Below are positions 5,661 to 60,931 of a stretch of 64,000 nt of DNA, in pieces. Numbering within the stretch: the first letter of the stretch is position 1; each line of letters opens with the position of its first letter. The stretch comes from Chloroflexota bacterium. GTDB lineage: Bacteria > Chloroflexota > Anaerolineae > Anaerolineales > JBFLVL01. Both the position numbers and the translations under genes were made by a program. Location: assembly GCA_040758495.1 (NCBI GenBank), contig JBFLVL010000014.1:17161-81160 (forward strand), in the 5' to 3' direction. The notes beneath the pieces were generated by a model, which was not told the DNA's origin, ran no database searches, and was given only the letters and a program-made list of their open reading frames with translations.

Positions 5661-5882
5661 GTTTACTGTACCCTCGCAGAATCTTGATCCTAGCAATCCC
5701 TTCAAAGTGTACGCTATTTTCTCAGTTCAAGCAATATCATATTTTTACCATCCTTCGACTTGGGCATAGAGAAACTGTCCTTCTCCATCAAAAAAACACC
5801 CCGGAGGCAATGCTCCCGGGGCTTAAAATTCTGATCAACCCTGTAGGTTTACGAAAGGTTCCTACATGTGGTTACCCACGTT

Positions 5883-6200
5883 TCAGGAAGCTGTATGCAT
5901 AGTCGAGGGTTGCACAGATTGCTCCTTCACCTGCTTCTTCACCTGCTGCAACAAACCCAAAGCTGCCAACAATGCCACCACCGCTCGTAATCCATTGATG
6001 ATCAGCAAGGTGCCACTGGCAATCCCCACCAGGATTAAAACGGCTTTCTTTATCCCCTCCATGCTGATGACAGGAATCTGCCAGCGAGTCGTTCCAGGGG
6101 CAGAACCAACTAAAATTTCTCTGAGACCACGCACAAATTCCGGGCGCGGTTTTACAGGATGGAGAGCAGATCCAAGGTGTTGCTCAATATCTATGTCCAT
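5883..6200 (-). CDS. small membrane protein
   Basis: 105-aa ORF with a hydrophobic core (AVLILVGIASGTLLIINGLRAVVALLAALGLL). Lies 4 nt downstream of degV. Confidence 0.35.
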   Translation of the reverse strand: MDIDIEQHLGSALHPVKPRPEFVRGLREILVGSAPGTTRWQIPVISMEGIKKAVLILVGIASGTLLIINGLRAVVALLAALGLLQQVKKQVKEQSVQPSTMHTAS

Positions 6201-40927: not shown

Positions 40928-42079
40928 ATGGACAGGATTTACCTTGATTACGCGGCGACCACACCAGTTGACCCCCGTGTGCTGGAGGTCATGCTGCCCT
41001 ACTTCCAGCACACCTTCGGCAACCCCTCCTCGGCGCATTTCTTCGGACAGCAAGCCGAAGGTGCCATAGAGGCCGCCCGCGAAACCGTGGCTGGCTGCCT
41101 GAACTGCTCTCCAGGCGAGGTCATTTTCACCGCCTGTGGGACCGAATCCGATAACCTGGCCTTGCGAGGCGCGGCCTTTGCCGCCCGCCAGGCACGGGGC
41201 GCGGATCACATCCTCATCAGCCCGGTCGAACACCACGCCGTCAGCCATACCGCCCAACAACTTGCTGAAGTGCACGGCTTTGAACTGGAATACCTGCCGG
41301 TTGACGAATACGGCAGGGTGCGCCCGGAGGATGTCGCCGCACGCCTGCGCCCAGACACTGCCATCGTTTCGATCATCTACGCCAACAACGAAATCGGGAG
41401 CCTCAACCCCTTGGCGGAAATCGGGGCTGTCTGCAAGCCGCGGGGTATCCCCCTGCACACCGACGCGGTGCAGGCAGGAGCCTACCTGCCCCTGGACGTA
41501 CAGGCTTTACAGGTGGATATGATGTCCCTGGGAGCGCACAAATTTTACGGGCCAAAAGGGGTGGGAGCCTTGTTCGTGCGAAAGGGCATTTCCCTGCTGC
41601 CTCACACGACGGGCGGTGGACAGGAATTTGGCCTGCGTGCTGGAACCCATAACGTGCCCTACGTCCTGGGCATGGCCGAGGCATTGCGCCTGGCCCAGGC
41701 AGAGCGCCAGACTCATGCATCCCACCTGCAAACCCTGCGCGATCGGATAATTGGACATCTCTTGGAGGAAATACCCGATACCCGCCTTACCGGGCACCCC
41801 ACTCAAAGGCTGCCCAACCATGCCAGCTTTGTGTTCAAGGGCGTGGACGGGAACGAGCTGCTCACCCTGCTCGATGTGCAGGGGTTCGCCTGCTCCTCTG
41901 GCTCAGCCTGCAAGACGGGGAGCCCCGAACCCTCCGAAGTGCTCCTCGCCCTGGGGCTACCCCGCGAATGGGCCCTGGGATCCCTGCGGGTGACAGTAGG
42001 AAAGCAAACCACCCCTGAACAAGTGGAAAGCTTTTTAGAAGTGTTACCATCCGTGGTGGGGAGGGTCAGAAAAGCCTAG
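40928..42079 (+). CDS. cysteine desulfurase (NifS/IscS class)
   Basis: YLDYAATTP, a PLP-Lys region (SLGAHKFYGPKG) and the active-site loop SSGSAC. Confidence 0.9.
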   Translation: MDRIYLDYAATTPVDPRVLEVMLPYFQHTFGNPSSAHFFGQQAEGAIEAARETVAGCLNCSPGEVIFTACGTESDNLALRGAAFAARQARGADHILISPVEHHAVSHTAQQLAEVHGFELEYLPVDEYGRVRPEDVAARLRPDTAIVSIIYANNEIGSLNPLAEIGAVCKPRGIPLHTDAVQAGAYLPLDVQALQVDMMSLGAHKFYGPKGVGALFVRKGISLLPHTTGGGQEFGLRAGTHNVPYVLGMAEALRLAQAERQTHASHLQTLRDRIIGHLLEEIPDTRLTGHPTQRLPNHASFVFKGVDGNELLTLLDVQGFACSSGSACKTGSPEPSEVLLALGLPREWALGSLRVTVGKQTTPEQVESFLEVLPSVVGRVRKA

Positions 42080-42238
42080 TCACTTCGGAGTTGCTTTGCA
42101 GGGGATATTTTTTAGTATAATGATTATCGGGGAGGTGGTTTTGTGCTAATCAGCCTAAGTTTTGTGCAACTCGGATGGATGTGGCGGCGCATTGAACTGA
42201 GCTTCCGCATTGGCTCTGCCCGCCACGTCAATCCTTAA

Positions 42239-42367
42239 ACGTTATGGGGTCATATTGATATTCGGACAACAGCAAGGTATACTCGAGTAAGTAAGCGTAC
42301 GTTGTCTGAAGTGCGCAGCCCGTTGGATAGTCCCCCGCTAGCAGGTGGGGAGGGAGAGGAAGGGTAA
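42239..42367 (+). pseudogene. C-terminal remnant of a tyrosine recombinase with an integron-integrase-like ending
   Basis: 42242-42364 translates to LWGHIDIRTTARYTRVSKRTLSEVRSPLDSPP... (Box II GH..TT..YT.V with the catalytic Tyr). An in-frame TAA lies at 42236-38, and no upstream coding remainder exists. Confidence 0.55.
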
Positions 42368-42462
42368 AGAGATAAGGGTGATAGTGAGCAAGTGCAAACT
42401 ATCAGGTGTTATTGCGTCATGAGCACTATCGCTGTGTTGGGCGGCCTGAAATACAGAGTGGT

Positions 42463-43035
42463 ATGAAGATTACAGGAAAGCATGTTGTACTAAGAGATGA
42501 AAAGAAAGAAAACGATAGTGACGATTTCTTCCATTGGCGGAACCTGGGAGAGTGGCAATATTATGATGAACCCGATGAAACATTCGAGAGCATAAGTCGG
42601 GAAAAATATGAGCAGCAGAGAAAAGAACGCAATCAAAAAACAAAGCCACCGATTTTGAATAGTCATACTTGGCAAATTGATACCCTTAAAGGTCAACATG
42701 TCGGTTGGGTAAATTATTATCAGCTTGATGAGCAATTGGGACAAGCGTTTGTAGGAATATGTCTACCAGAGGAAGGAACTTGGAATAAAGGATATGGCAC
42801 AGAAGCCCTAAATCTTCTGATAAATTACTTATTTCGTGAGATAGGATTGAAGAAAGTCAAGACAGCAACTTGGACTGGAAATAAACGAATGGTACGCTGT
42901 GCTGAAAAGTGTGGCTTTGAGAAATATATTCTAATGCCACATCGAGTAGAACACTCTGTTCGAGGTGAGCCGTTAGAAAGGATAGAATTTACTCTTACCT
43001 GTTCGGAGTGGTTATCACGGAAGACGAGAGAATAG
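42463..43035 (+). CDS. GNAT family N-acetyltransferase (RimJ/RimL-like)
   Basis: Acetyl-CoA motif-A-like region WNKGYGTEAL. A GTTGGGC box at 42436-42442 lies 20 nt upstream of the ATG. Confidence 0.8.
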   Translation: MKITGKHVVLRDEKKENDSDDFFHWRNLGEWQYYDEPDETFESISREKYEQQRKERNQKTKPPILNSHTWQIDTLKGQHVGWVNYYQLDEQLGQAFVGICLPEEGTWNKGYGTEALNLLINYLFREIGLKKVKTATWTGNKRMVRCAEKCGFEKYILMPHRVEHSVRGEPLERIEFTLTCSEWLSRKTRE

Positions 43036-43077: not shown

Positions 43078-43202
43078 GCCCAACCACACATGCAGGCGAC
43101 CGGGCTGGCGCCCGAGGGTAAGCGGCGCGATTTTAGGCGATTGGTTACGAGCAAAGGATGTCCAGAGCTACAAACGCCCGGCGCCTGATGTAAACGTTAA
43201 TA
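43078..43202 (+). repeat. attC-like site 1
   Basis: GCCCAAC...GTTAATA. Arms are ACAT[G]CAGGCG[A]CCGGGC versus reverse-complement ACAT-CAGGCG-CCGGGC. Ends 4 nt before the next ATG. Confidence 0.75.
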
Positions 43203-44288: not shown

Positions 44289-44414
44289 GCCTAACCCCAA
44301 TTGCACGGGACTCGCCTTCGGCTCTGGTACGCGGCGCAAAAGATGCTAATTTAGGTTACAATTGAATTGGCCGACAATGCAAGAGTCGGCGAGCCCGTGA
44401 ATTACCCGTTGAAA
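44289..44414 (+). repeat. attC-like site 2
   Basis: GCCTAAC...GTTGAAA. Arms are AATT[G]CACGGG[A]CTCGCC versus AATT-CACGGG-CTCGCC. Confidence 0.75.
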
Positions 44415-44587
44415 CTGTCGAAAAAGTAAGAAAAGAGGTCGAAAATAGTGCCGCTCAAGCACAAAATTCAGTGTTCTCGCCATGAATAAGGTATTATTCG
44501 ACAGTCTCGTTGGGCGCAGACGGTAGAATTTGCGCTATAATGGCAATGCACAATCTCCAACAACATGCTTCGTGAAGAAGGTATCTT

Positions 44588-45127: not shown

Positions 45128-45254
45128 GCCCAACACTGCATGCAGGCGACGGGGCTACCGCCTCCCCCCCAGCGAAGGCTCTGGTCGTTCCGGCAAGTCT
45201 TGCCCGCAAAGGGGTCTTTAGCATCCGCCCCGCGCCTGATGCTTGCCGTTGAAA
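45128..45254 (+). repeat. attC-like site 3
   Basis: GCCCAAC...GTTGAAA. Arms are GCAT[G]CAGGCG[A]CGGGGC versus GCAT-CAGGCG-CGGGGC. Confidence 0.8.
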
Positions 45255-46014: not shown

Positions 46015-46144
46015 TGCCAACACAGCGTGCACCGGACTCATGGGATTCGTCCCGCTAAATTGAGTTGGTTCTGGCTTTTGGGTTTACCGCTATAGTAACT
46101 TTATCCAAGTCCCACCCACGAGCCGGTAACGCCAGCCGTTGAAA
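46015..46144 (+). repeat. attC-like site 4
   Basis: tGCCAAC...GTTGAAA. Arms are GCGT[G]CACCGG[A]CTCATGGG versus GCGT-TACCGG-CTCGTGGG. Confidence 0.7.
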
Positions 46145-46236
46145 CTGTCGAAAAAGTGTGAAAAGGGGCAGAAAATAGTGGCGATAATGCCCAAGGTTCT
46201 GTATCCTCTTCGTAAGAATGCAGTATAGAGGCATCG

Positions 46237-46503
46237 ATGGCTAAATACAAACCCTACCGTTATGACCAATTGGTCATGATCCCCATCTCACTCCAAAATC
46301 AGCTCGAACCCGGGACGCTGGAATACACCATCAACGCATTGGTGGAGAACCATCTCGATTTGTCGGTGTTCGAGGAGCGACATCGCCACAGATGTGTACA
46401 TCCTGTGTGGGCTGATCGTGCTGGCCATCGTGATTGCCGGTTTCATCGTCCGACGGAGCGGGGTAGAAAGTTCGAGGTCAGCCTCAAGGGCTTTCTAAAA
46501 TAA
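46237..46503 (+). pseudogene. N-terminal remnant of an IS1182-like (DUF772-type) transposase
   Basis: MAKYKPYRYDQLVMIPISLQNQLEPGTLEYTINALVENHLDLSVFEER matches the N-termini of this transposase type (from memory). Homology is lost after ~48 aa. Confidence 0.55.
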
Positions 46504-49379: not shown

Positions 49380-51425
49380 ATGAAAAGTTGTTTCCCCTTT
49401 CTAACCCTTCTCATTTTGTTCATTGCCGCCTGCGATCTGTCTGCGCCGGAAAGTGAGACTATTGAGCCGACAGAAGATGCGGCCACGTTGTCGTCCGATG
49501 CCCAGCCTGCTTTTGGCGGCGAAACCCGATCCGATGGCGCCATCCGGCTAACCACCCCGCCTGCCGGGGCCAGCGACCAGAACCCTGCCTTTTCGCCGGA
49601 TGGTTCCCAAATTGTGTTTACCCGCTTTGACAACGGTTATAACGCTGGCCCGGCCGGGTTATTTTTGCTCGACCTTACGACCTTTGCTGTCACTCGCCTG
49701 ACCCCTTCGGAGGATCAGGATAATGTCAATTTACCGGGGTCCGCCTGGAATGGGATCAATGCCCGCATTGTCTTTGCCTCCGACCGGATGGAGGCCGACG
49801 ACCTGTGGTGGGTTGCCCCAGATGGTTCTGATTTCAGCCGCATCACCACCCACAGCGGCCCGCCCTGGTATATTGAACCCTCCTGGGCGCCAGATGGCCA
49901 GTGGATTGTCTTCGAGGCCGACGCCGATCTGCCCGACGACGCGCAGCAGGGTAGTATCTGGAAGGTGCGCGCCGATGGCTCCGGTTTGACCGTACTCACC
50001 GACGGGCCCGGTGGAGGCATGGACGACCGGCAGCCCAACTGGTCCCCCGCAGGCGACCGCATCCTTTTCCAGCGCCGTATCCCCGGCAGTGATGACTGGA
50101 ACCTGTACACCATCAACCCTGACGGCAACGGCCTCCAGCAGGTAACTTTCTCGCCGGCCAGCGATACCGACGCCAGTTGGTCCCCCGATGGCCGCTGGAT
50201 TGTGTACTCGTCTGATCACGGCGGGCTGCCGGTCCCGAACATTTTTATCATCCCGGCGGATGGCGGTGAACCGGTTCGCGCCACTTTCGATGCGACCCAG
50301 GAAGATGGAGCGCCTTCCTGGTCGCCCGATGGAAAATGGATCGCCTTTGAATCGCATCCGGGACAAAACGAAGAGACCCCGTCCGCTTTGTGGCGAATTG
50401 CAGCGCCGGACCTTGGGGCAGTGGAATACTCCGAAACGGCCGCGCCGCCCGAAGGGAGTCTGAATCGCCTGGCGTTCGTGCGCCACTGGCTGTATCTGAT
50501 CGACGTGAATCTTGAGCCGGAGACGGTCACCCTCATCGAAGACTCCGGCTACGATCTGGTGGTGCTCGACTTCATTCCCTCCGAAGTCAACAATACGGAC
50601 TACCCTATGGCCGAGGTGATCGCCCGCCTGCACAACGCGCCGCACTCGAAATTGGTGCTGGCCTATATCGACATCGGCCAGGCCGAGAGTTATCGCACCT
50701 ACTGGCAGCCGGGCTGGGGCATCGGCAACCCCGATTGGATCGCGGGCGCCGACCCCGACGGCTGGGAAGGCAACTTTCCGGTAGCCTACTGGCGCGACGA
50801 GTGGCGGGACATCTGGCTGGGAGCGGACGGCTACCTGCAGGCCACTGTGGACAGCGGCTTCGACGGCGTCTATCTCGACTGGGTGGAAGCCTACTCGGAT
50901 GAGAACGTGATCGCCATCGCGGAGCAGGATGGCGTGGATGCGCAGCGGGAAATGATCCGCTGGGTGGGCGACATCGCCGCGTTCGGGCGCGCCCGCCGTC
51001 CCGGCTTCGTCGTTATCGCCCAGAACGCCGCCGAACTGGCCGGGTTGGATAACTATGTGGCAATCATCGACGCCATCGCTCAGGAACAGGTGTGGTTCGA
51101 CGGCGCGGCCGACAACGACCCCCCCGGCGACTGCCCGTTGCCGCGCACTGAGGCCGAGGTGGACACGCCCGCCTATTACGCGAGCCTCTCCCCGCCGTGC
51201 CGCGTGCAGTACGATCAATACCCCGACAGTACCCTGCATGTGAGCAGCGAAGCCTACTTGCGCGATTTGAAACTAGCGCACAGCAAAGGGCTGATCATCT
51301 TCACGGTGGATTATGCTCTGGAACCGGAGAATGTCGCCTGGGTCTACGAGACATCGCGCGGGCTGGGGTTTGTGCCGTTTGCGGGCAGCCGGGCGCTCGA
51401 TCAGTATGTCGAAGTATTCAAGTAA
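49380..51425 (+). CDS. lipoprotein: PD40/TolB-like beta-propeller + TM1410-type glycosidase-like TIM barrel
   Basis: Lipobox LFIAAC. Five or more FSPDG/WSPDG repeats. C-terminal LAYIDIGQAESYRTYW...GFDGVYLDWVEAY. Confidence 0.7.
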   Translation: MKSCFPFLTLLILFIAACDLSAPESETIEPTEDAATLSSDAQPAFGGETRSDGAIRLTTPPAGASDQNPAFSPDGSQIVFTRFDNGYNAGPAGLFLLDLTTFAVTRLTPSEDQDNVNLPGSAWNGINARIVFASDRMEADDLWWVAPDGSDFSRITTHSGPPWYIEPSWAPDGQWIVFEADADLPDDAQQGSIWKVRADGSGLTVLTDGPGGGMDDRQPNWSPAGDRILFQRRIPGSDDWNLYTINPDGNGLQQVTFSPASDTDASWSPDGRWIVYSSDHGGLPVPNIFIIPADGGEPVRATFDATQEDGAPSWSPDGKWIAFESHPGQNEETPSALWRIAAPDLGAVEYSETAAPPEGSLNRLAFVRHWLYLIDVNLEPETVTLIEDSGYDLVVLDFIPSEVNNTDYPMAEVIARLHNAPHSKLVLAYIDIGQAESYRTYWQPGWGIGNPDWIAGADPDGWEGNFPVAYWRDEWRDIWLGADGYLQATVDSGFDGVYLDWVEAYSDENVIAIAEQDGVDAQREMIRWVGDIAAFGRARRPGFVVIAQNAAELAGLDNYVAIIDAIAQEQVWFDGAADNDPPGDCPLPRTEAEVDTPAYYASLSPPCRVQYDQYPDSTLHVSSEAYLRDLKLAHSKGLIIFTVDYALEPENVAWVYETSRGLGFVPFAGSRALDQYVEVFK

Positions 51426-51441
51426 TACGGTCAATGGGGCG

Positions 51442-52422
51442 ATGAATATGAATAGAAAAACTATAGTGCTCCTGGCAATCATTTTTGTTCAATTCACTGC
51501 AATGATTGCGTGCAATGCTGCTGCTAGGAGGAGTACGCCAACTGCCAGTGATGAGATCATTTACGAACAAATATCAAGGGAAACAAAAATCCCTGTCAAT
51601 GCAGTCAAGATGTTGCCTGAAACGGATGCTCATCCGCCAATTCTGCTGTCCGACGAATTTGAAAACCCCATACCTCTACCTGGCAAGGTAAACACGGCGG
51701 GAGCCGAAGATTCGCCCTTCATTATGCCTGACGGAAACACTTTATATTTCTTCTTCACGCCCGATGTGTCCATTCCGGCTGAAAAGCAATTGTTTGACGG
51801 AGTTACTGGGATTTATGTATCGAACAGAATTGAAGGGGAATGGGCCAATCCGGCAAGGCTATGGCTGCAAGACTCTGGTAAATTGGCATTGGATGGTTGC
51901 GAGTTTGTCTTGGGCGACAGCATGTGGTTTTGTTCAAGCCGAGAAGGCTATACGGGTATCAACTGGTTTACCGCCAAATACCAGGAGGGCACGTGGAAAA
52001 ACTGGAGCAAAGTAGACTTCACTTCTGATTTCAAGGTGGGAGAGTTGCATATCACCAGTGATGGTACTGAGCTATATTTTGGCTCGGATAGACCGGGCGG
52101 GCAGGGAAAGATGGACATCTGGTTGTCGAAGAAGGTCAACGAGGAATGGCAAGAGCCAATAAACGTTGCCAGCGTCAATACGCCGGATGATGAAGGTTGG
52201 CCGGCGATAAGTTTCGATGGGGAGGAGTTGTGGTTCTATAGGAACTATGGTATATGGCGGTCGAAGAAACAGAATGGGGAATGGCAAGAGGCCGAGCAAA
52301 TAGTTTCAACGCTGGCTGGGGAACCTTCGCTTGATAAGGATGGCAATCTCTATTTTGTCCATTATTATTATGTTGATGACCAGATGATTGAAGCGGACAT
52401 TTACGTTTCATATAGGAAGTAG
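51442..52422 (+). CDS. PD40 (WD40-like beta-propeller) repeat protein, secreted
   Basis: Signal/TM segment MNMNRKTIVLLAIIF. Repeats MPDGNTLYF, SDGTELYFGSDRPGG.G..DIW and FDGEELWF. Confidence 0.6.
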   Translation: MNMNRKTIVLLAIIFVQFTAMIACNAAARRSTPTASDEIIYEQISRETKIPVNAVKMLPETDAHPPILLSDEFENPIPLPGKVNTAGAEDSPFIMPDGNTLYFFFTPDVSIPAEKQLFDGVTGIYVSNRIEGEWANPARLWLQDSGKLALDGCEFVLGDSMWFCSSREGYTGINWFTAKYQEGTWKNWSKVDFTSDFKVGELHITSDGTELYFGSDRPGGQGKMDIWLSKKVNEEWQEPINVASVNTPDDEGWPAISFDGEELWFYRNYGIWRSKKQNGEWQEAEQIVSTLAGEPSLDKDGNLYFVHYYYVDDQMIEADIYVSYRK

Positions 52423-52429
52423 AAGGGCA

Positions 52430-52558
52430 GCCCAACCAGCGCATGGGGCCGATTTGGCCTACTGGGGCCCAAAGACGGAGTTGGTTGGCATCATGGGCAC
52501 TCTGGTAGACGACCAAGTCTTCAATAACCCGGCCAAACGGCTCATGCGAACGTTAGGT
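52430..52558 (+). repeat. attC-like site 5
   Basis: GCCCAAC...GTTAGGT. Arms are GCAT[G]GGGCCG[A]TTTGGCC versus GCAT-GAGCCG-TTTGGCC. Starts 8 nt after a stop codon. Confidence 0.8.
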
Positions 52559-52688
52559 GGCTTCCGCTAAACCCAAATACCTCGTCGCGTTTCACGGGCT
52601 AATAGTTCCCCCAATTATGCTCACAGGGAGTCAGCGTGGTAGAATTCGTTATGCTGGCTATCTTGTCACGGAATAAAAGGATTCGGCA

Positions 52689-53483
52689 GTGAACAAACTT
52701 TGCCCGTTTTGCAATACAGAAATCGAAACTTCACTTGTTCGCCATATCAAGGCAGAGCATGGGGAAGAAACGTTGCGCAAGGCCCTTCTGGCGGATAAAC
52801 GCAATGGCACGCCTGACGCGCAAATTAGTGACAAGTACGGTATCTCGTTCAGTTATCTTGAACGAGTTATTACTCAGGAATACGGAACTAATATAAGCAC
52901 CGTCACTCGTAAGAAATCCAAGATAACTCAATGGGAGCCAAAGGGCTTTCAGCCAGAGACAACCACCGTTTGGAGTTTCAAGAATCGGGGCAAGTGGGCA
53001 ACCCACGACGGACGCTATCGGGGGAACTGGTCTCCGTACATTCCACGCAATCTCATCTTGCGATATTCACAACCACAAGAAGTTGTGCTCGACTATAGCG
53101 GTGGGGGAACAACCGCTGTAGAAGCGAAACTCCTAAGCCGCCGTTGTATCGCGCGCGATATTAATCCAGACGCTTTGGCGCTGACGCAGGAAAACCTTGA
53201 TATTCAACCGCCTCAAGATATGTTTTCGGGCAATGGAAAATCCCTCGTGCAACCCGAACTTGTTCTTGGTGACGCACGAGACCTATCTACTATTGACGAT
53301 GAATCCATTGATCTGATATGCGCTCACCCGCCCTACGCTGGGATCATCAATTACAGCGCAAACGCGGTTGATGGCGACCTCTCTACGCTTTCCGTTCCTG
53401 AATTCATAGCCGAAATGCAAAAGGTTGCCCGCGAAAGTTACCGCGTACTCAAGGCAGGGCGGCAGTGCGCAATTTTGTTTTGA
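52689..53483 (+). CDS. N4/N6 DNA methyltransferase, probably C-terminally truncated
   Basis: Motif I variant VLDYSGGGTT, motif IV AHPPY. The ORF ends ...VLKAGRQCAILF* where homologs continue (..IGD..). N-terminal CxxC/HTH extension. Confidence 0.65.
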   Translation: MNKLCPFCNTEIETSLVRHIKAEHGEETLRKALLADKRNGTPDAQISDKYGISFSYLERVITQEYGTNISTVTRKKSKITQWEPKGFQPETTTVWSFKNRGKWATHDGRYRGNWSPYIPRNLILRYSQPQEVVLDYSGGGTTAVEAKLLSRRCIARDINPDALALTQENLDIQPPQDMFSGNGKSLVQPELVLGDARDLSTIDDESIDLICAHPPYAGIINYSANAVDGDLSTLSVPEFIAEMQKVARESYRVLKAGRQCAILF

Positions 53484-53486
53484 GGG

Positions 53487-54344
53487 ATGCCTATGCAAAT
53501 CCAAATGGTAGATAATGTTGAACGCAATACCGCTTCGGTGCTCGTCCCTGCCATTGAGACCGCAAACGACATTCGCATTGCGGTGGCATTTGTATCAAGC
53601 GATGGGCTGTCCCAAATTATGCCTTCTGTCCATATGGCGCTGGAAGCAGGTGCTTATGTCGAATTTCTGGTAGGAATGGATTCGCGCGCCACAGATCCTT
53701 CCGCCATAAGAGACCTTTACACCTTGTTCCAAAAAACCTCCCTGGGTTCTCTCCTGTGTTTCGCATCTCGAAGGACATCTGCGATATACCACCCCAAGAT
53801 GTATTTAGCGAGAGATAGCCAGACTGCAACTGCAATCATTGGCTCGTCGAATTTGACACGACGGGGGCTAGTATCAAACATCGAAGCAAATGTGGTTATC
53901 AAAGAAGATATTCGCGCGGAAATCGTATCAGAGATATACAGCACATATAACAGACTAAAATACCATCCCGACAGAGTCTTACCTGATGATGAGTTCATTG
54001 ACTTGTTCGCGGAACTGTGCCAAAAAGAAAAATCCCGCGAACATAGCTTGGAAAGAGATTCTGAACTTCAAGAACTGAAAGAGACTTTTGTTAGGAAAGC
54101 GAACAAACTTCAGCGCCCAAAGCCAACAAGAGCGGACTTGATCGGTTGGCTTGAATTGGTATACGACGCACTTCCAGAAGGCAGGTTTACAAACCAGGAT
54201 ATTTACGCATACGAAGATGAATTTAGTCGTCACTATCCGCAGAATCTGAACATCAAAGCAAAGATCAGGCAGCAATTGCAGTTTCTGCATAAATTAGGAT
54301 TTATCGAACATCCAAGCAAAGGAGTATGGAAAAAATTGGTTTAA
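53487..54344 (+). CDS. PLD-family (HKD) nuclease with a C-terminal DpnI_C-like winged helix
   Basis: YHPKMYL...GSSNLT HKD motif. The C-terminus YPQNLNIKAKIRQQLQFLHKLGFIE is typical of restriction-enzyme wH domains. Alternative start at 53493. Confidence 0.7.
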   Translation: MPMQIQMVDNVERNTASVLVPAIETANDIRIAVAFVSSDGLSQIMPSVHMALEAGAYVEFLVGMDSRATDPSAIRDLYTLFQKTSLGSLLCFASRRTSAIYHPKMYLARDSQTATAIIGSSNLTRRGLVSNIEANVVIKEDIRAEIVSEIYSTYNRLKYHPDRVLPDDEFIDLFAELCQKEKSREHSLERDSELQELKETFVRKANKLQRPKPTRADLIGWLELVYDALPEGRFTNQDIYAYEDEFSRHYPQNLNIKAKIRQQLQFLHKLGFIEHPSKGVWKKLV

Positions 54345-54345
54345 T

Positions 54346-54552
54346 ATGGGTTACAAAGATGATAGATGGCTTGAAGCCCCTGGCTACTGTGTAGAATGTG
54401 GAAATCTAAGACCACTCAACCAGTCGTGTGTATGCCGCGAGTGCTGGTACGACCTCGAAATGCTAGGCATGGAGTGGGAAGAAGATGAGGATAGAAGTCG
54501 AATCTACTACCAGCGGGTGAGCACGCAATGTGAGTTCAACAAGCGCGCATAG
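54346..54552 (+). CDS. small Cys-rich (zinc-ribbon-like) protein
   Basis: 68 aa, CVECG...CVCRECW. Starts 1 nt after the nuclease gene. Confidence 0.35.
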   Translation: MGYKDDRWLEAPGYCVECGNLRPLNQSCVCRECWYDLEMLGMEWEEDEDRSRIYYQRVSTQCEFNKRA

Positions 54553-54726
54553 CTGCCCGTGAAATTGCCTTAATCAGGTTTCAATTTTTACTGCATTAGG
54601 AGGTAACAATTTCTTCAGCTCAACTACACATCAACCTGCTAAAACAATAATCAAACTGTAAATTTGTTCTTCAAATGGGTATGAAACATTATAATACGGG
54701 GAGATGTACCAAGTGGAGTTTATTCT

Positions 54727-56313
54727 ATGGTAGATGATAAAGAGTTACTAACAATACAAGAAGCCAGCGAATGGGCAAGTAATTATTTGGGCAGGGATGT
54801 ATCAACCTCCAATATTTCTTATTTGGTTCAGTATGGGCGCGTAAAAAGATACAGTAACCATGGTTTGACTCAAGTTGCTAAACAAGATTTGGTTCGGTAT
54901 TACAAATCGCATATTGGCGAGAGAGAACTAGAATGGAAAAATGAACTTGGTGAAGATCTGAATTGGGCTTTATCGTTTGATAATCTAGCAGAAAAAGAAA
55001 GAACGAAACACGTTCACCGATTGCACCCATATAAAGGCAAATTCATTCCCCAATTGGTCGAGTATTTTCTGGATAAGCACACCGATGAATTTAAAAATGA
55101 GATCTTTTTCAAACCAGGCGATATTGTACTTGACCCATTTTGTGGAAGTGGGACAACATTAGTGCAAGCAAATGAGCTTGGCATTCACGCAATTGGAGTG
55201 GATATCTCAGCATTTAACGCCATGATTAGCAATGTGAAAGTTGGTAAACATAATCTATATAAACTACATGACGAGATACGCAGAATTACCATCGCGCTTA
55301 AAGAATCCGTTGCTGGTAAAAAGCATGTCGCTTTTGAAACTGAACTTGCCGAGTCACTTACACAGTTCAATAACTTACATTTTCCCACTCCTGAGTTCAA
55401 ATATCGAGTGAGGCGGGGAGAAATTGACCAGGTACAATATGGCAGAGAAAAAGAGAGTGAATTCCGGAAGGTTTTCGACACGCTTGTGTTGAAATACAAC
55501 TTTACGATTCGTCAAGAAAAGGGAGAATCCTTTCTCGACCAATGGTTTATCAAGCCCGTCCGTGAAGAGATAGAGTTTGTGTTTGAACATATTCAGGGGA
55601 TACAAGATATTGATATCAAGAAAATTTTAGCAGTCATTCTGAGCCGAACCATGCGTTCGTGTAGAGCAACAACCCATGCGGACCTTGCCACTTTAGTAGA
55701 TCCCATTTTTTCAACATATTATTGCAGAAAGCATGGGAAAATTTGCAAACCCCTCTTTTCAATCTTGAGCTGGTGGGAAAGATACAGCAAAGATACCTTG
55801 CAAAGGTTAGCGGAATTTCATCGCTGTAGAACTGCCACTTTTCAACATTGTTTTACTGGTGACTCAAGAACGATTGACATTTTTTCGGAGTTACAACATA
55901 AAGACAAGCCCTTTGCTGATTTTGCAGTAAGACACAAGATAAATGGCATATTTTCCAGTCCTCCGTATGTAGGTCTAATTGATTATCATGAACAACATGC
56001 TTACGCTTATGATCTCTTCAAGTTTGAACGCAGAGACGAGCTCGAAATTGGTCCGCTCTATAAAGGACAAGGCAGAGAAGCCCAAGAGTCATACGTGGAG
56101 GGAATTGCAGAAGTGCTGAGAAACAGCCGTAATTTCCTCGTTGATGACTACAACATATTTCTCGTCGCGAACGATAAATATGATTTATACCCACAAATTG
56201 CTGAAAAAGCTGGCATGGACATTATCAATGAATTCAAGCGACCAGTTTTATGCCGCACAGAAAAGAACAAGATGCCATATTCCGAAAAGATTTTCTTACT
56301 GAAAGGCAAATAA
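54727..56313 (+). CDS. DNA methyltransferase (N4-C/N6-A type) with N-terminal HTH
   Basis: Motif I VLDPFCGSGTT, motif IV SSPPY. AT-rich. Confidence 0.8.
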   Translation: MVDDKELLTIQEASEWASNYLGRDVSTSNISYLVQYGRVKRYSNHGLTQVAKQDLVRYYKSHIGERELEWKNELGEDLNWALSFDNLAEKERTKHVHRLHPYKGKFIPQLVEYFLDKHTDEFKNEIFFKPGDIVLDPFCGSGTTLVQANELGIHAIGVDISAFNAMISNVKVGKHNLYKLHDEIRRITIALKESVAGKKHVAFETELAESLTQFNNLHFPTPEFKYRVRRGEIDQVQYGREKESEFRKVFDTLVLKYNFTIRQEKGESFLDQWFIKPVREEIEFVFEHIQGIQDIDIKKILAVILSRTMRSCRATTHADLATLVDPIFSTYYCRKHGKICKPLFSILSWWERYSKDTLQRLAEFHRCRTATFQHCFTGDSRTIDIFSELQHKDKPFADFAVRHKINGIFSSPPYVGLIDYHEQHAYAYDLFKFERRDELEIGPLYKGQGREAQESYVEGIAEVLRNSRNFLVDDYNIFLVANDKYDLYPQIAEKAGMDIINEFKRPVLCRTEKNKMPYSEKIFLLKGK

Positions 56314-56314
56314 T

Positions 56315-57106
56315 ATGGGGATGACAGAAGAGAAAAAACAACGTGTAAAAGAAACCCTCAAACAAAGCTTACGTAAGAAGTTTCAAAAATATCAACCCGA
56401 ATCAAAACACATGCCGTTTCACTATCGCTTGTTGGGTAAGGACAGAATGGCTTTATTTTCGTTCATCCATTCTATAAATACAACTTTCGGAACATCTGTC
56501 TACGAACCCGTTGCCCTGGAATTAGCCAGAGGAAGATATGCGATCGTAAAAACACAAGCAAAGCCCCACAATGAGATTAGTGTTGTAGCACAACAGGTCA
56601 TACAAAATATTATTGATGAACTTATAAGTGCTACTCGCGAACCCAAGAGGGAAACAGAATTTAACGAAATAAAGCATGTTTGCAGAGTTGCCCCAATTAA
56701 AAAGATAAAACCAAATTTAATAGATGTTTGGCTTGAAGATACAGATGGAAACAAGTACTTGATAGATATGAAAACGGTTAAACCAAATGTGGAGGGTTTC
56801 ATCGGTCACAAACGCAAGCTTCTCGAATGGATTGCCCAGGAATTGGTCAGGAATCCAGATTCGAGAGTACACTCGATGATTGGCATTCCATATAATCCTT
56901 ATGAACCGAAACCTTATAATAGGTGGACAATGAGGGGGATGTTTGACCTCACTAAAGAAGTATTGGTGGCAGATGAGTTGTGGGATTTTATTGGTGGTGA
57001 AGGAACAAATCAGGATTTGTTAGATTGCTTTGAAAAAGCCGGAATCGAGTTACGCCCAGAAATTGATGAACATTTCGCTAAGTTCGAAACAATCCATAAT
57101 ATTTGA
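56315..57106 (+). CDS. type II restriction endonuclease candidate (TdeIII-like by recollection)
   Basis: Starts 1 nt after the methylase stop. PD-(D/E)xK-like IDVWLED...YLIDMK. The N-terminal MPFHYRLLGKDR..SFIHS pattern resembles the RE_TdeIII family. Confidence 0.5.
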   Translation: MGMTEEKKQRVKETLKQSLRKKFQKYQPESKHMPFHYRLLGKDRMALFSFIHSINTTFGTSVYEPVALELARGRYAIVKTQAKPHNEISVVAQQVIQNIIDELISATREPKRETEFNEIKHVCRVAPIKKIKPNLIDVWLEDTDGNKYLIDMKTVKPNVEGFIGHKRKLLEWIAQELVRNPDSRVHSMIGIPYNPYEPKPYNRWTMRGMFDLTKEVLVADELWDFIGGEGTNQDLLDCFEKAGIELRPEIDEHFAKFETIHNI

Positions 57107-60806: not shown

Positions 60807-60931
60807 AACGAACAGGGGAGCAGCACTCCGAGGGCACTTCGCCCAACAGCGGGTTCAACGAAAGGACCGCGTTTGACAATGAGTTGAAAATCGTCCATAA
60901 TAACAAAGCTGCTTAGAGAAAGGAGACAAAG

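Follow-up and report, generated by a model that had tools for sequence, protein, structure and literature searches.

The 3' end of a lost tyrosine recombinase gene at the head of a Chloroflexota cassette array, and a recombinase family that may form a non-canonical integron platform

In a 64,000-nt stretch of contig JBFLVL010000014.1 from a Chloroflexota bacterium (the whole stretch is called the window here), the end of a tyrosine recombinase gene lies between the chromosomal gene iscS and an array of gene cassettes. The locus raises the question of which recombinase this fragment once belonged to, and whether that recombinase served the array. The initial annotation had taken the fragment for the remainder of the array's own integron integrase, deleted down to about 40 codons. 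The first half of this proposal stood up well: the fragment is best read as the 3' end of the platform gene, the rest of which is gone. The second half did not, since the parent, represented by the protein P0009, is not an IntI in the accepted sense; it lacks the IntI-specific insertion and stays below the IntI profile cutoffs. We consider it likely that the stub is the dead 3' end of a P0009-type recombinase gene that once served this array as part of an integron-like platform, and that its truncation was linked to an IS91-type element.

The stub and its parent family

The features at the stub are:

42236-42238, + strand: in-frame TAA, directly 5' of the stub and within a hairpin element
42242-42367, + strand: putative platform tyrosine recombinase stub, 41 codons plus stop, with box II (LWGH...RYT) including the catalytic Tyr, followed by a VRSPLD tail
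42255-42283, + strand: promoter-like sequence TTGATA-17-TATACT within the stub, reading toward the cassettes; a consensus match only (10/12)

Retranslation of 42242-42364 (+ strand) gave the peptide LWGHIDIRTTARYTRVSKRTLSEVRSPLDSPPLAGGEGEEG, followed by the stop codon at 42365-67; peptide, stop and the in-frame TAA at 42236-38 were exactly as annotated. Across 42080-42370, the frame of 42242 reads ...SLSFVQLGWMWRRIELSFRIGSARHVNP*TLWGHIDIRTTARYTRVSKRTLSEVRSPLDSPPLAGGEGEEG*, the asterisks marking stops. Doubtful recombinase similarity had been reported further upstream in another frame. The stretch concerned, SLSFVQLGWMWRRIEL, lies in the same frame and is not derived from a recombinase: it is the translated hairpin of 42164-42247, to which we return below. 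The stub has no start codon and the upstream gene body is gone. It is the sole instance of a box II-like motif in the six-frame translation of the 64 kb, in which no intact tyrosine recombinase motif was detected, and the complete catalytic set R, K, HxxR, H/W and Y was not found in any one ORF, the box II part alone being present. Lacking a start codon, the stub can therefore give no recombinase product and is a pseudogene fragment. The idea that it was kept because of a promoter for the cassettes was rejected: promoter-like sites are at chance level (one found, 0.8 expected), and DNA-level conservation of this site was not found in relatives.

That the peptide represents the 3' end of a tyrosine recombinase gene, with box II and its catalytic Tyr, was confirmed. 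NCBIfam profiles place it at the extreme C-terminus of tyrosine recombinase models, where LWGHIDIRTTARYT covers the final ~30 positions of TIGR02249, XerC and XerD. The integron integrase model TIGR02249 scored best (23.4 bits, E 3e-5, positions 286-314 of 315), followed by XerC (15.1 bits, E 0.01) and XerD (12.7 bits). A PDB search with the stub gave a single match, VchIntIA (2A3V, residues 292-318, E 0.7), and Pfam gave none on the 41 residues.

The identification of the parent gene relied on longer relatives. A word-index protein search with the stub peptide returned no candidates; an exhaustive phmmer search of 1.8 billion representatives returned 6 matches at E<=6e-4, 5 of them short C-terminal recombinase fragments. 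The phmmer match P0005 is the tail of a frameshifted gene of ~370 aa on contig L002, and the reconstructed L002 protein, used as query, retrieved more than 4000 relatives of 350-380 aa, annotated as XerD, site-specific integrase or 'site-specific tyrosine recombinase/integron integrase'. Found among them was P0009 (MEW6717764.1, 366 aa, "site-specific integrase"), encoded in a Chloroflexota metagenome-assembled genome and ending in ...LLGHIDIRTTARYTQVSKRTLSEVRSPLDSPPLASGEGDEG. Compared with the window by tblastn, P0009 showed 37/41 identities over its residues 326-366 (E 6e-18), and the alignment reaches the last residue of both sequences; no other piece of P0009 was found in the window by tblastn, even at E<=50. 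This identity, the shared end and the lack of any other matching piece argue that the stub represents the last 41 codons of a P0009-type gene whose first ~325 codons are absent.

P0009 consists of ~85 N-terminal residues without Pfam match, followed by PF13495 (SAM_4) and PF00589 (E 1e-39). It remained below every NCBIfam cutoff tested. On TIGR02249 it reached 181.8 bits for a cutoff of 265 bits, in two pieces that skip model positions 177-233, and on NF011946 131.9 for a cutoff of 435 bits; five other family members scored 188-219 on TIGR02249 (cutoff 265). The family straddles the cutoff (220 bits) of the archaeal XerA model NF040815 (XerA_Arch), P0009 (195.7), P0007 (207.3) and P0042 (201.3) lying below it and P0064 (228), P0095 (232.4) and P0088 (240.4) above. 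The best PDB match of P0009 was archaeal XerA (5HXY, 133 bits). VchIntIA aligned to it in two pieces, VchIntIA residues 177-241 facing only 23 residues of P0009; judged from this alignment, the gap corresponds to the IntI-specific insertion, which P0009 lacks. The profile and tblastn comparisons suggested with the initial annotation thus gave a divided answer: TIGR02249 is indeed the best model for the stub peptide, whereas its full-length relative is best matched by XerA.

With P0009, 80 genome loci were recovered from Anaerolineae, Clostridia, Spirochaetota, Bacteroidota, Patescibacteria and others. The spacing between the box I Arg and HxxR was 89-92 residues at all 73 loci of the 80 where it could be measured, and most of the 80 end in ...SPLD.... 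The V-R-S-P-L-D tail had been put forward as a mark of IntI; being common among insertion-less relatives, it is not diagnostic. As a pseudogene the stub is ordinary. Its parent family is what sets it apart, as a non-canonical, integron-like platform.

Decay has occurred elsewhere in this family: the L002 gene carries a stop and a frameshift, that of L163 has lost its N-terminus, and L001 holds a stub of 55 aa. The latter (287-454, ...EWWGHVDIRTTQRYTLVNKVDLANVRSPLD...) is a second, independent stub, truncated at very nearly the same position; a short palindrome, GCCCAACAACG...CGTTGTTGGGT, comes after it (downstream to 545), and upstream of it, in divergent orientation, there is the N-terminus of a further recombinase gene. 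Among L031-L082, many contigs stop 100-400 nt past the recombinase stop codon, though 10 kb were available upstream. Such contig ends would fit assemblies that break where repeated or variable sequence immediately follows the recombinase genes.

The attI-like site, the attC sites and the intact relatives

The features downstream of the stub are:

42368-42436, + strand: attI-like region, from the stub stop to the crossover G, with inverted arms GTGATAGTGAGC (42378-89) and GAGCACTATCGC (42421-32)
42436-42442, + strand: core site GTTGGGC, with the putative attI x attC crossover G|TT at 42436/42437; cassette 1 begins at 42437
42463-43035, + strand: ORF of cassette 1, GNAT acetyltransferase (PF13302, E 6e-20)
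43078-43202, + strand: attC1, R'' GCCCAAC ... R' GTTAATA, recognised by alignment, folds, covariation and a self-match of the model R1 (see below)
44289-44414, + strand: attC2, GCCTAAC ... GTTGAAA, closing cassette 2 (356-aa ORF without Pfam match)
45128-45254, + strand: attC3, GCCCAAC ... GTTGAAA, closing cassette 3 (DUF4258 and zinc-finger proteins)
46015-46144, + strand: attC4, TGCCAAC ... GTTGAAA, closing cassette 4 (PIN_3 toxin and HicB-like antitoxin)
52430-52558, + strand: attC5, GCCCAAC ... GTTAGGT; R1 match 52427-52561, 17.8 bits, E 0.004
60838-60892, + strand: weak, short sixth attC candidate, R1 E 0.19

The crossover G|TTGGGCGGCC lies 69 nt past the stub stop. When reverse-complemented, GTTGGGCGGCC (42436-46) gives exactly GGCCGCCCAAC, found at the inverse core of attC1 (43074-84); this complementarity is the signature expected of a circular cassette inserted at attI. 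The layout after the recombinase stop codon in L002 and L163, GGTGATAAGT...TTATCACGT(A/G)G|TTAG, has the same architecture as the attI region of the window, and in intact relatives the attI-like site lies 70-140 nt past the stop. The placement of the remnant at the head of the array, pointing toward the cassettes, was therefore correctly annotated: it is attI-proximal and co-directional with the attC sites.

attC1-4 have the cores R'' (G/T)(C/G)C(C/T)AAC and R' GTT(G/A)A(A/T)A, a 15-bp L box and, in 4/4, two bulged bases on the R''/L'' arm. In their bottom-strand alignment 98.7% of the cells of 19 pairs are paired, with compensatory changes in 9/15 L-box pairs; none of 500 shuffles reached the observed values and slid controls were 29-37% paired. 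These sites thus show what characterizes attC: a palindrome, AAC/GTT cores, bulges on one arm and a structure better conserved than the sequence. From the four sites alone we built a covariance model, R1, which was run with filters off, the model being narrow; under default filters it gave no match in 82 loci. attC5 directly follows a 369-aa ORF (51313-52422), has an ad hoc stem score of 35 and carries two left-arm bulges as in attC1-3, which would take the array or variable region at least as far as this site. With five attC sites in the window, the array falls under the definition of CALIN (attC clusters without an integron integrase; at least two attC, no integron integrase nearby). No Rfam family was found in 41.9-47.5 kb. 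The ORFs of cassettes 1-4 are all on the + strand, and the GC content drops from ~0.62 in iscS to 0.38-0.47 in the cassettes.

Some further observations concern the array and what follows it. The DUF4258/zinc-finger pair of cassette 3 resembles a toxin-antitoxin system, and a homologous pair forms a cassette in L005. A leader of ~85 nt right after the R' core, CCGTTGAAACTGTCGAAAAAGT..GAAAAG.GG..GAAAATAGTG.CG..., is ~79% identical between two different cassettes (44406-44490 and 46136-46220) and has no Rfam match. Just after attC4, where the regular cassette pattern ends, lies an 88-aa ORF (46237-46503, MAKYKPYRYDQLVMIPISLQNQLEPGTLEYTINALVENHLDLSVF...) without Pfam match, which we take to resemble an N-terminal fragment of an IS1182/IS5-type transposase. 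Between 46.1 and 60.9 kb there are restriction-modification-like genes (52689-57106) and low-GC patches; the variable region may extend over ~18 kb with degenerate or lost attC sites.

In the Chloroflexota subgroup at least, and as far as sequence comparison can tell, intact family members stand at the head of attC arrays of the window's type. Eleven contigs encode P0026 (62% identity to P0009) with no difference in the protein, and the flank upstream of it is conserved (HlyIII, HU-HIG). On these contigs the DNA is identical through ...GTTAATCCGCGCGCCGATTAACACGTTG|TT, with the attI-like end ...GATTAACACGTTG|TT, and then continues into at least three different cassette sets, all co-directional (an RDD gene set, CarboxypepD_reg with HEAT, or a 108-aa protein with DUF4190). 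In both L164 (cassette start TTGTGCGGCC, inverse core GGCCGCACAAC) and L165 (TTAGCCCGC, GCGGGCTAAC) the cassette start matches the inverse core of its own attC. The P0042 loci show the same pattern at ...ACACCAG|TTGTG, with Rce1-like or WD40 cassettes coming next, and L005, whose recombinase is 47% identical, has two attC-like sites downstream besides its DUF4258/zinc-finger cassette. R1 matched 3' of family genes and in the same orientation at L164 12412-12541 (E 1e-12), L164 12756-12888 (2e-11), L175 5774-5906 (1e-8) and L163 11791-11923 (7e-7). Since R1 was trained on the window, these matches point to the window's attC type as the one that accompanies this recombinase family. In the wider family (35-45% identity, several phyla), a stem-score scan within 2.5 kb of the genes gave 16 strong sites per 103 kb downstream and 10 per 171 kb upstream (Poisson p 5e-4), with clear tandem arrays in L046 (six sites), L063, L056, L072 and L039.

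The P0042 loci L172-L179 share a unit made of a large serine recombinase (Resolvase+Recombinase, 521 aa), a 66-aa gene, the Xer-like integrase and a cassette. Since this unit recurs unchanged behind three or more distinct upstream genomic contexts, the P0042 platform may, as a whole, ride on a mobile element moved by its serine recombinase.

The hairpin upstream of the stub and the loss of the gene

Upstream of the stub the window contains:

40928-42079, + strand: cysteine desulfurase (IscS/NifS-like), 383 aa, the final conserved gene of the chromosome ahead of the variable region
42164-42247, + strand: imperfect hairpin, 85 nt, GTGCAAC-TCG-GATGGATGTGGCGGCGCA...GCCCGCCACGTCAATCC-TTAAAC-GTTATGG

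Synteny is kept upstream of iscS (phosphoglucomutase-like, TatD and polyprenyl synthase genes) and not downstream of it: in 80 metagenome loci with IscS relatives 45-72% identical to that of the window, the window's genes downstream of iscS were shared by 0/80. Only 85 nt separate the iscS stop from the hairpin. The hairpin ends in ...CCTTAAAC-GTTATGG, where GTTAT overlaps the stub codons T-L-W and constitutes the 5' boundary of the stub. It folds at -16.9 kcal/mol (z -2.2) and has a homologue at L163:6373-6459 (78.7% over 89 nt, E 2.5e-10). In L163 the hairpin is a perfect 21-bp stem (z -9.6) located 256 nt after a C-terminal fragment of an IS91-family transposase; L002 has, 233 nt past an intact IS91-family transposase, a hairpin whose flanks are the same (CAACTNGG...CCTTAAT-GTTG). 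Both end in ...CCTTAA(N)GTT(A/G).

In IS91 and ISCR elements the terminal oriIS lies a few hundred bases after tnpA and abuts a target of the GTTC/CTTG type. The hairpin of the window resembles this arrangement through its counterparts, which stand at a fixed distance after Y2 transposase genes (L002, L163) and abut GTT(A/G), and it differs in that no transposase is left in the window. An IS91-family element probably ended in this hairpin, which would be of the oriIS type, and the truncation of the gene by such an element is likely. Attachment-site finders have been reported to make attC-like calls right after ISCR28 genes (PMC12772301). In L163 an attC-like left half (GCCCAACCCCGCTAGCACCTGACC..., 5670-5729) is situated directly before the IS91-family transposase fragment (5749-6120), an observation in its own right that suggests a preference of IS91-type elements for the GTT cores of integron-type sites.

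The following course of events appears the most likely. The parent gene would have encoded a protein of ~366 aa with an N-terminal extension of ~85 aa, a core-binding domain of the SAM_4 type and a Xer-like catalytic domain that lacks the IntI-specific insertion. It would have been transcribed toward the array, with the attI-like site after its stop codon, and cassettes with folded attC would have been exchanged at the attI G|TT, so that the whole worked as an integron with a co-directional ('inverted') integrase. The recombinase itself would catalyse this exchange, by attI x attC and attC x attC recombination on folded single strands; what is seen is cassette replacement at the population level. 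An IS91-type element may then have inserted at GTTA in or beside the box II codons for E-L-L. The first ~325 codons and the body of the IS would have disappeared afterwards, in an order of insertion and deletion that we propose with the hairpin taken as oriIS, leaving iscS followed by 85 nt, then hairpin, stub, attI and cassettes. As the stub has no start codon and gives no product, the attC cluster would now be frozen, except if some paralogue encoded elsewhere in the genome supplies the activity in trans.

Competing explanations and relation to known systems

The reading of the stub as the decayed platform gene of this array draws on its location 69 nt from a crossover complementary to attC1, followed by at least five co-directional attC sites. 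Could the gene have been a canonical IntI, with the insertion, from the inverted-orientation group? The position and orientation would suit an integron platform, and the profile and structure searches with the 41 residues seem to speak in favor, with TIGR02249 (23.4 bits, XerC reaching 15.1) as best NCBIfam model and VchIntIA as sole PDB match. The region that defines IntI is deleted in the window, so that the stub cannot demonstrate IntI status, whereas P0009, 90% identical across the stub including its idiosyncratic tail SPPLA-GEG-EG, lacks the insertion and stays below the IntI cutoffs, and the tail is common to insertion-less relatives. We regard a canonical IntI origin as very improbable, slightly more so than a stub unrelated to the array, that is mobile-element or Xer-type debris, such as an IS91-linked tyrosine recombinase, that ended up beside an attC cluster by chance. 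Such debris could explain why an IS91-type hairpin touches the stub, and indeed L002 has a recombinase of 289 aa directly upstream of its IS91 transposase and the family is annotated as XerD or site-specific integrase. The stub, however, matches the 366-aa P0009 type and not the 289-aa IS91-linked type with its box II AYLGHSSPRTTAIYTHL, and it is positioned downstream of the hairpin, in contrast to the IS91-linked recombinase, which precedes the transposase on its upstream side. The stop-to-G|TT distance and the architecture match those of intact platforms, and the same attC type follows intact family members; chance association is thus improbable. A chance ORF with a box II-like pattern, on which Pfam and the word-index search would be expected to stay blank as they did, is effectively excluded by the 37/41 identity to the C-terminus of a real protein (E 6e-18) and by the 6 library matches at E<=6e-4, 5 of which are C-terminal recombinase pieces.

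Another explanation concerns the truncation only. The recombinase may have shortened its own gene through recombination of the hairpin, as an attC-like site, with a secondary GTT of that gene (GAG-TTA...), without any IS91 element. The hairpin does have AAC...GTT cores, with the GTT at the homology boundary, an attC-type site occurs upstream of the integrase in L163 (8627-8757, R1 E 0.027), and integrase-mediated events at secondary GTT sites are known from work cited in PMC4889954. The two bulges of the array attC sites are, however, missing from the hairpin, R1 misses it in the window at E<=10 and gives its homologue at L163 6373-6456 just 12.3 bits, and both other copies of the hairpin stand at a fixed distance after IS91-family transposase genes. 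A reading of the hairpin as one more attC ('attC0') that had undergone recombination with a secondary site was downgraded to a rival once the homologue was found behind IS91-family transposase genes. Self-truncation is unlikely, although it deserves more weight than the alternatives for the origin of the stub.

Several points weigh against the reading of a P0009-type platform truncated by an IS91-type element. To our knowledge, an insertion-less recombinase has never been shown to recombine attC sites. These genomes could encode a canonical IntI at another place, acting in trans, and P0009 was compared here as a protein alone, apart from its genomic context. The attC enrichment in the wider family is modest and amounts, per locus, to 10/42 downstream and 8/70 upstream (p 0.11). 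The IS91 link comes from two loci (L002, L163), a transposase remnant is absent from the window, and the AAC...GTT cores make the hairpin attC-like as well. The search for a full-length gene beside iscS in related genomes, proposed with the initial annotation, did not provide confirmation: a P0009-like gene was present within 10 kb of iscS in 0/80 metagenomic loci, whose IscS proteins, at most 72% identical, are too distant to decide. Finally, the insertion has been reported as necessary for IntI activity by Messier & Roy (2001), as cited in PMC4889954 and PMC9668308.

The locus has much in common with integrons based on IntI (IntI1, VchIntIA / PDB 2A3V). In both, a tyrosine recombinase gene adjoins an attI-like site, the attC sites are imperfect palindromes with R''/R' cores of the type RYYYAAC/GTTRRRY, one-arm bulges and a G|TT crossover, and the start of a cassette is complementary to its own inverse core. 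Box II and tail are similar, and the cassette content (toxin-antitoxin pairs, GNAT, unknowns) is typical. The parent family differs from IntI by the lack of the insertion of ~40-60 residues near patch III, by its additional N-terminal domain of ~85 aa and by its scores below the TIGR02249 and NF011946 cutoffs. Furthermore, the gene is co-directional with the cassettes here, with attI after the stop codon. The label 'IntI-like' may be appropriate for the way the recombinase works; it fails for family membership because the parent family lacks the defining insertion and does not reach the curated cutoffs.

An integrase transcribed toward the array with attI downstream is also found in the inverted-integrase integrons of Treponema spp. 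and in archaeal integrons (PMC4889954, PMC9668308). According to these published descriptions, the integrases concerned have the IntI-specific domain, which sets them apart from the family described here. With archaeal XerA (NF040815; PDB 5HXY, 4A8E), its best structural and NCBIfam match, P0009 shares a compact, insertion-less catalytic domain. XerA resolves chromosome dimers at dif. The present family differs from it by the N-terminal extension and by its position at the head of variable cassette arrays, and P0009 scores 195.7 for a cutoff of 220. The window is likewise comparable to a CALIN with a nearby intI pseudogene (Cury et al. 2016): it contains five attC sites or more, an intact integrase is absent from its 64 kb, and a recombinase pseudogene borders the array. 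Its pseudogene, however, would be invisible to the intI_Cterm criterion of IntegronFinder, since the parent family lacks that region.

More tentatively, and with slightly less than even confidence, we propose that a clade of Xer/XerA-like recombinases without the IntI insertion and with an extra N-terminal domain acts as genuine cassette-array recombinases in Chloroflexota, and possibly in Bacteroidota and Patescibacteria, with attI after the stop codon and folded attC sites as substrates. A literature search found no published description of insertion-less recombinases heading attC arrays. The insertion is treated as a defining and necessary feature of IntI (PMC4889954, PMC9024848, PMC9668308), while Smyshlyaev et al. 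describe it as 'not fully conserved' within the integron-like subgroup.

The detection and the theory of integrons rest on one criterion, a tyrosine recombinase with an extra domain that grips flipped-out bases of the folded attC, and arrays without such an integrase are scored as orphan CALINs, whose abundance is an open puzzle (PMC4889954). Here the stub allows the platform gene of this locus to be reconstructed, and this leads to a family without this domain, intact members of which appear to head the same attC type. This hints at a second kind of integron, built on an insertion-less, co-directional platform, and the locus illustrates a concrete route by which such a platform may die, through an IS91-type element targeting GTT. 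If this holds true, the insertion would not be universally required for attC recombination, and the recognition of attC would have a second structural solution. Many CALINs would then be complete integrons of a second, co-directional type, or recently decayed ones as here, which would explain part of the CALIN puzzle, and integron surveys of Chloroflexota and other environmental phyla would undercount.

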